Positions 28,555 to 28,865 of a stretch of DNA of 64,000 nucleotides are shown in pieces. The position numbers and the translations under genes were made by a program. A model generated the notes under the pieces. The model had not been told where the DNA came from. It was given only the letters and a program-made list of their open reading frames with translations, and made no database searches. Positions within the stretch are counted from its first letter, which is position 1, and the number at the start of each line of letters is the position of its first letter. The stretch covers positions 50,904,001 to 50,968,000 of the forward strand of contig OZ076409.1 in the NCBI GenBank assembly GCA_964187785.1. The letters are read 5' to 3'. The DNA is from Amphiscolops sp. MND2022. Taxonomy: Eukaryota.

Positions 28555-28820
28555 AAAAATACAAAACCCATAGGCATGCCATTGGTATTGACATGCCTAT
28601 GGTAAACTCAAAGCCCATCGGGAGTCCGTTCCACTAAGAGTTTCCACAGCAGGGATTATCCTTTTTAAGAACTGTGCCATTGGTGATTATTCTCCCATAG
28701 CATGTAAGTTGTAACAAAGACTGGGGGACGTTGGATGCGAAGCTGCGCAGAAGTGAACCCCAAACACTCCGGCCGAAGCCTTAACTTTAGTCAATGCTAT
28801 AACCACTAAGCTATGGGAGA
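28555..28820 (-). ncRNA. Candidate structured small RNA (tRNA-like 5' end, Pol III A box)
   Basis: Minus strand begins TCTCCCA-TA-GCTTAGTGGTTATAGC. Features: 11-bp terminal stem (28691-28701 with 28810-28820), a cUUCGg hairpin, and a downstream 11-bp hairpin (28568-28602) followed by T-runs. Confidence 0.5.
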
Positions 28821-28865
28821 CGAATCAATGTTAGTTGTAGTTATATAAGAATAACGTATGCGCCG

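Follow-up and report, generated by a model that had tools for sequence, protein, structure and literature searches.

A Polinton copy with a non-coding unit in a terminal repeat

The window, by which we mean the whole 64,000-nucleotide stretch of Amphiscolops sp. DNA that was analyzed, holds a Polinton copy at 16733-29282 (no strand assigned), recognized by its terminal inverted repeats (TIRs), its target-site duplication (TSD) and its domain scores. The inverted repeats open with AGTAGT and the integrated copy is flanked by a 6-bp duplication, AATAAC. Its genes encode an adenain-like protease, a penton-like protein, an ATPase, a double-jelly-roll capsid protein and the N-terminal part of PolB with an endonuclease VII domain; several of them are broken or shortened. 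Integrase and capsid domains were scored in sister copies, and this copy and its sisters between them show the defining features of Polintons/Mavericks (TIRs starting with AGT, a 6-bp TSD, PolB, integrase, ATPase and capsid). A second A32-like ATPase with a hydrophobic N-terminus was seen between the packaging ATPase and the integrase (L033:6006-7190).

The right TIR occupies 28555-29282 (minus strand), and its inner edge is a T5 run. A 17-bp tandem array of variable copy number lies within it at 28849-29037 (minus strand), upstream of the non-coding unit that is the subject of this study. The left TIR of this copy (16733-17057, plus strand) is deleted from the 17-bp array inward and does not carry the unit. 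An earlier reading of the letters alone, hereafter the sequence-only reading, had described the unit as the only long GC-balanced non-coding stretch of the element, and it is indeed the sole non-coding 272-nt window of the element with at least 43% GC.

The segment 28555-28821 has 685 candidate matches in the genome, of which 40 were scored; the adenain-like protein of this Polinton clade has 2278, of which 150 were scored. Segment matches occur as inverted pairs 14-15 kb apart, and homology ends at 28555-28559 in 11 of the 30 loci that match best among the 685 candidates (left ends). The unit is therefore the inner third of the TIR in a high-copy Polinton clade; it normally faces inward from each of the two ends, and the T5 run marks the inner edge of the TIR. 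The sequence-only reading had placed it inside the right end of the Polinton, which is accurate for the right TIR and incomplete in that both ends normally carry the unit, the window copy having lost the left one. That reading had also allowed for a host SINE inserted in this copy only, a case contradicted by the TIR context of 30 out of 30 loci (again the best 30 of 685 candidates).

Among 80 left ends picked by their adenain protein, the unit was present in 35, absent from 43 and partial in 2, and adenain was intact in the 43 that had lost it. Right ends retain the unit in 11 of 14 and in 29 of 30 cases. One unit copy per Polinton seems to be enough, which fits action in trans. The flanking repeat-like units could by themselves account for the loss of the unit at left ends.

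In the ends examined, the unit was not found in subfamily A2 or in families B and C, lineages that still spread; families B and C showed no homologue of it save the last 34 nt in one C locus. We built a midpoint-rooted tree from the adjacent gene only (33 rows; L252 was dropped because the gene is missing there, and weak forks were collapsed). On this tree the unit is already found in the deepest branches of the clade, a distribution suggesting that A2 lost it and that family E replaced it. Several family-A copies sit in (ATTG)n/(CAAT)n simple repeats (L059, L062, L063, L117, L119, L120 and L123), and the family-C TIR contains a palindrome with AGTAG-like ends and a GCTTCGC-rich interior (L086:6757-6900; L085:1690-1775).

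Promoter elements and predicted transcript

The predicted Pol III transcript would be read from the minus strand, from G28821 (+1) over about 250-265 nt to a T4 or T5 run (28555-28821); its start, set at the constraint boundary described below, and its end are both predictions. The box consensus and usual positions were taken from PMC7279448. An A box, TAGCTTAGTGG, lies at +9 (28813-28803, minus strand) and matches TRGYnnARBGG exactly, as the sequence-only reading had noted; the published position is about +12 (PMC7279448). A B-box-like element, GGTTCACTTCT, follows at +63, 54 nt after the A box (28749-28759, minus strand). It had been called weak, and it fits 10 of the 11 positions of GGTTCRAnYCY and lacks the conserved A. 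The T4-T5 runs proposed as terminators are also in place, the first T4 after +1 at +256 (28566-28563) and the T5 at +263 (28559-28555), so that the predicted Pol III terminator spans 28555-28566 (minus strand). A TATA box, TATATAA, at -26 to -20 (28841-28847, minus strand) had escaped the sequence-only reading. A second exact A-box match lies in the middle domain at 28636-28626 (minus strand), without a B box.

A TATA-like element near -30/-24 and a terminator of at least four Ts are thus both found, the TATA at -26 to -20 being slightly close. Its distance to the A box is 34 nt, against about 40 from the positions in PMC7279448, and host U6 genes have their TATA-like box at -30; the spacing in the unit is about 4-5 nt tighter than the published one and that of host U6. 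A type-3 (U6-like) Pol III gene would have the host PSE at about -59 with fixed spacing; a motif common to the host U6 genes at -59 is only loosely resembled by the 17-bp repeat, 2 nt off in spacing. These U6 genes stand in tail-to-tail pairs about 60 bp apart (L091-L094).

The combination of exact A box, 10/11 B box and TATA occurs once in the 64-kb window. Across 300 shuffles of the element all three coincided in none and A and B in 2, with box thresholds that were picked after the site had been seen. Across 46 copies, the W position of the TATA changes from T to A in 7, the spacer shows no indel, and the only shared A-box change is T>C at a free position, in 5 copies.

Sequence constraint on the unit

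To avoid selecting on the segment itself, we chose copies via the adenain protein (35 left ends with the unit). Shared variants fall on 10 of 200 positions from +1 to +200, compared with 16 of 130 adenain third positions, 10 of 260 first and second positions and 9 of 46 positions upstream. The unit differs from the adenain third positions (Fisher p 0.02) and from the upstream stretch (p 0.003). Singleton rates are equal in unit and adenain, and the ratio of shared to singleton variants, an MK-like test, alone gives p 0.059. Four distant copies differ from L009 at 3/200, 3/200, 6/200 and 6/199 positions of the unit (1.5-3%), and at 10, 10, 7 and 12 of the 30 positions of the spacer upstream of +1 (23-40%). 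The adjacent gene of the distant copies has accumulated about 0.12-0.20 changes per site, an approximate figure from branch lengths summed over a tree with weak forks collapsed. On these sequence comparisons, the unit evolves more slowly than the adjacent protein gene.

Constraint begins sharply at G28821, ends near the T-run and is near-total over the unit, loops included. A boundary at +1 is what one would expect if a transcript were under selection or served as the route of conversion, and the high identity could partly reflect exchange between TIRs.

Predicted folding

The minus-strand letters are as the sequence-only reading gave them, and several of its structural elements hold in the computed fold: the 11-bp terminal stem (28820-28810 with 28701-28691), the UUCG hairpin (28780-28771) and the 3' hairpin (28602-28568), which has 14 pairs counting G.U. 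Others do not. The TTGAC/GTTAA and GGAGTG/CACTTC hairpins are absent from the MFE and centroid structures, and the TGCG-CAGCTT-CGCA hairpin proved to be a polymorphic 12-nt insertion at 28737-28748, treated below. The RNA is predicted to form a vault/VA-like closed panhandle of 119 nt without the insert (28691-28820, minus strand; terminal stem, bulged extension and UUCG hairpin), followed by stem domains. Next come the middle domains (28603-28690, minus strand), which have the most conserved sequence and weak predicted folding, and the 3' hairpin (28568-28602, minus strand), whose hypervariable loop takes many insertions. The 3' arm of this hairpin and the T-run are older than the unit, being kept in lineages that do not have it.

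Folding is stronger than in shuffles, with z -4.0 for the 130-nt domain and -5.0 for 277 nt of the minus strand, against -2.9 for the plus strand. An insert-free natural copy gives z -4.2 versus -2.5 as a whole, its 119-nt core scores alike on both strands (-3.9 and -4.1), and for the middle part by itself the difference from shuffles lacks significance (z -0.7). In the alignment, 24 of 24 copies have an intact terminal stem. Covariation across copies, which that reading had named as a check, was not seen: no pair out of 71 changed on both sides in 24 copies, and the score lay at shuffle level (399/500), so the fold is not proven; power was low because 51 pairs never vary in the per-helix table.

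Support for the fold comes from one-sided changes. Four helix variants are each carried by at least 7 of 46 copies, and in all four the bases still pair, through a change from G-C to G.U or from U.G to either C-G or U-A; pairing is kept by 6 of 11 shared variants versus 7 of 37 singletons (p 0.047), the shared variants being related by descent and thus amounting to few independent events. Shared changes that give G.U on the A-box strand number four C>T versus one G>A. Pairs are broken by two shared variants (positions 88 and 214) and by three beside the variable loop.

Comparison with known RNA families

The tRNA-like character proposed earlier survives in the A box and a tRNA-like head and fails beyond them: inspection shows no T-arm or cloverleaf, ARAGORN reports nothing in the window and seven loci, and Rfam yields no tRNA match. 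At E <= 10, Rfam searches of the window region and an insert-free copy returned chance matches only, with no tRNA, VA or vault RNA among them, and two family-E loci searched at E <= 5 likewise gave chance matches only. The VA model and vault RNA (RF00006) were accordingly rejected at E <= 10, the latter also because no T-run directly follows the terminal stem. A likeness of the unit to Y RNA/sbRNA was considered and set aside, as Rfam gave no match. As a test of a SINE or host tRNA source, one tight pattern (unit head plus canonical B box) was searched genome-wide and found a single Polinton copy and no such source. Neither the A-box 18-mer nor the ATPase nor a doubled 12-mer pattern matched anything in viral contigs.

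Adenovirus VA RNAs and EBV EBERs are viral RNAs with type-2 Pol III boxes, an upstream TATA-like element, a closed terminal stem and a U-run end (PMC4378190, PMC7279448). The Polinton unit has an A box and a B-box-like element, the upstream TATA, and a predicted terminal stem and U-run end; it differs in being about 250 nt long, in a terminator that comes 130 nt after the terminal stem, in its duplication in the TIR and in the lack of an Rfam match. Vault RNA offers a host counterpart. Host vault RNA genes score 44-54 bits to RF00006 and share 13 of 14 letters of the A-box region with the unit; both have the A box in the 5' strand of a panhandle, a closed terminal stem and an imperfect B box, whereas the unit has no T-run directly after the terminal stem and three further domains. 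The host vault RNA genes form tandem arrays of dozens of copies with a period of about 690 bp (L101-L108; C8 47.7-47.9 Mb and C6 59.8 Mb), and the C6-type array holds a tRNA-like internal stretch.

PMC4378190 describes the TMERs of the gammaherpesvirus MHV68, tRNA-miRNA RNAs with a tRNA-like head, downstream hairpins and a poly-U end, and the Pol III cassettes that foamy viruses keep in their LTRs. The Polinton unit shares the tRNA-like head, downstream hairpins, poly-U end and terminal-repeat location. It differs in having no T-arm or cloverleaf and in a 3' hairpin of only 14 pairs, which is short for a pre-miRNA. BocaSR, which Pol III transcribes from the 3' non-coding end of a bocavirus, is 140 nt long (PMC11194592). 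It resembles the unit in that a small DNA virus encodes it in a terminal non-coding region for Pol III, and differs in its length and single copy and in belonging to a virus without its own polymerase.

A parallel unit in family E

Family E (221 candidates; loci L217, L218, L219 and L250-L279) carries a TATA, an A box and a canonical B box at both ends of the element, at the same position in the TIR as the unit. The first 19 letters of the family-E unit match those of the window unit at 16 of 19 positions (E 0.1). In 32 copies chosen by likeness to the window unit, shared changes fall on free box positions, in three copies each. The family-E unit has a T4 upstream of the B box and folds weakly, so it may give a different product. 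Downstream lies a second strong TATA and then a conserved stem-closed domain; a short AAAAGGA..TCC hairpin in that domain shows some likeness to the middle domain of the window unit.

A polymorphic 12-nt mini-hairpin insert

The insertion at 28737-28748 (no strand assigned) reads GCGAAGCTGCGC on the plus strand, is blunt and lacks a target duplication. It is present in 13 of the 30 best-matching copies and in 1 of 46 copies chosen by protein. It consists of GCGNAGC overlapped by its reverse complement at GC, and a 14-nt form uses GCGNNAGC; the result is a pair of overlapping mini-hairpins, GC-GNA-GC or GC-GNNA-GC, whose loops are independent of each other. PMC13037366 reports that such DNA mini-hairpins are resistant to heat and nucleases.

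Indels of 12 nt account for 72 distinct events among the copies, versus 12-15 for lengths of 10, 11 or 13 nt. From 180 loci we obtained 57 isolated pairs of filled and empty flanks, giving 47 polymorphic sites in a census that leaves out tandem arrays; 42 of these sites add a net 12 nt. The reading frame is kept at 29 of 30 coding sites versus 13 of 17 non-coding ones (p 0.051). The 12-mers insert bluntly (28 sites) and the 14-mers mostly replace a GC. Blunt sites have no A before and no T after them in 27 of 28 cases (background 43%, p 2e-9), and 12 of the 28 are CA/TG (background 13%, p 1e-4). Insertion points fall inside a helix at 1 of 7 versus 114 of 255 junctions, a helix avoidance that is not significant (p about 0.1).

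The element at 16733-29282 holds 11 inserts of the 12-nt GCGNAGCTNCGC type and 23 of the 14-nt type, and the roughly 51 kb of flanking host DNA in the window holds neither motif. Families B and C nearly lack it (3 in 20 loci). Exact 12-mers number 3664 genome-wide against 134 for the control (27-fold), and of the first 50 places among the matches listed, 44 fall in Polinton-sized clusters and 6 are lone sites outside Polintons. The insert is largely confined to these Polintons.

A fold-back origin was rejected, as only 3 of 32 sites have two loop letters that complement each other. A REP/REPIN-type element was rejected as well, with no constant tag (GTAG) at the 47 sites and no RAYT-type Pfam family in the 27 proteins scanned. 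The ORF lists of 10 half-loci showed no mobilizing gene specific to insert carriers.

Cyanobacterial SDRs are ultra-short, GC-rich, invasive units. So are the 11-mer MUSE1 of Podospora, fungal double-hairpin elements, GC clusters and REPINs, according to PMC1864894, PMC7272585 and PMC7218506. The Polinton insert is like all of these in being ultra-short, GC-rich and invasive, and unlike them in residing in a nuclear virus-like element, in its build of two overlapping mini-hairpins, in its blunt or GC-overlap insertion and in lying in frame in many genes. MUSE1 and related organellar elements are its nearest precedents, and no Polinton with palindromic 12-bp insertions was found in the open-access literature.

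The insert might multiply as follows. Nuclease-resistant GCGNAGC/GCGNNAGC fragments, left from displaced strands, could anneal via their 3' GC; the annealed mini-hairpin pair would then be filled in and captured at breaks in Polinton DNA, and by such capture existing motifs would give rise to new ones. Two terminal pairs suffice for extension by Pol theta, according to PMC11292364. Alternatively, the insert may arise through template switching by PolB. A self-amplifying 12-bp element, if real, would carry no gene and would rank among the smallest selfish DNAs. It would give a possible mobile-unit role to a DNA mini-hairpin long known and biologically orphan, and the 47 polymorphic sites with their clear junction bias offer a way to study the movement of ultra-short invasive elements.

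A probable Pol III-type RNA and its alternatives

We read the unit as probably a Pol III-type structured non-coding RNA, the best reading of its sequence. The sequence-only reading had proposed such an RNA, and its core is supported by the promoter boxes, the constraint from +1 to near the T-run, the G.U-tolerant variants and the A/B-box unit of family E; the unit is no tRNA, and covariation did not appear. Transcription by host Pol III is likely, judging from these elements. Starting at G28821 and moving inward across the constrained 250-nt unit, the polymerase would make a folded non-coding RNA of about the same length, with a closed panhandle like that of host vault RNA or VA RNA and stem domains as in TMERs. 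This RNA may act in trans, as an abundant double-strand-like decoy against the Dicer/Argonaute defence of the host. We advance that whole chain, from inward transcription to a Dicer/Argonaute decoy, tentatively; the decoy role would take up about half of the Pol III case and is a guess to which we commit by analogy with VA RNA and in view of the antiviral RNAi of invertebrates. A PKR-antagonist role for the Polinton RNA has no support; PKR is to our knowledge found in vertebrates only, and we take the host to be an invertebrate.

The main rival keeps the Pol III RNA and gives it a task at the terminal repeats, either in replicating the DNA or in controlling terminal genes. The unit sits within the TIR beside presumed origins, near-total constraint including loops suits protein or DNA contacts, and PMC11194592 describes BocaSR as needed for viral DNA replication and EBER2 as acting at terminal repeats. 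Polintons, however, encode their own PolB, and A2, B and C do without the unit, and we regard such a role as unlikely. If the TATA were instead a Pol II promoter, the segment would be a structured leader (IRES or outron) for the first inner gene. The TATA is canonical, tolerates a change at W and faces the first gene at both ends; the B box is imperfect, and family E has its second strong TATA with a conserved stem downstream. Yet eight ATGs precede the T-run in the segment, the genes have their own TAAATG-type motif in front of them, adenain stays intact in the 43 of 80 left ends without the unit, and a leader leaves the exact A box and the family-E B box unexplained, which makes it improbable in our view.

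It is more improbable again that the unit works as DNA, either as a TFIIIC/tDNA-like heterochromatin barrier or as a signal for replication or packaging formed by a single-strand hairpin. The symmetry between the two ends and the A/B boxes kept in two families with differing downstream sequence would suit this, and Pol III-dependent barriers are known (PMC2040200). A barrier or origin should, however, be needed at both ends; the constraint spans 200 nt, far past the boxes; and the excess of shared C>T over G>A changes giving G.U on the A-box strand (four vs one) also speaks against it. A captured SINE or tRNA relic, neutral and homogenized by TIR conversion, could have left the tRNA-like head, and the TIRs of one element are copied onto each other. 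The unit is nonetheless more conserved than the adjacent protein gene, has a sharp boundary at +1, and its head with a canonical B box recurs in a single Polinton copy genome-wide; we hold such a relic to be very improbable and largely refuted.

Adenoviruses, herpesviruses, a bocavirus and some retroviruses are known to have Pol III RNAs. None was found for Polintons in the open-access literature, as judged from search listings. Stronger conservation of a non-coding unit than of the protein genes of the element would mean that animal Polintons, like viruses, retain RNA tools, and with hundreds of unit copies this is easy to test. The fullest form of our proposal is doubtful: that the Polintons of this clade make a Pol III small RNA, the first known for any Polinton, from a swappable counter-defence cassette held in the TIR, and that they are themselves parasitized by a self-amplifying 12-bp element.

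Other features of the window

An assembly gap (N) lies at about 29607-29805. A tandem duplication with a period of about 5.37 kb occupies 810-4590 and 6181-9969. ORFs of a Pao-type LTR retrotransposon and a LINE (endonuclease and RT) were seen at 50022-53549 and 61112-63286.
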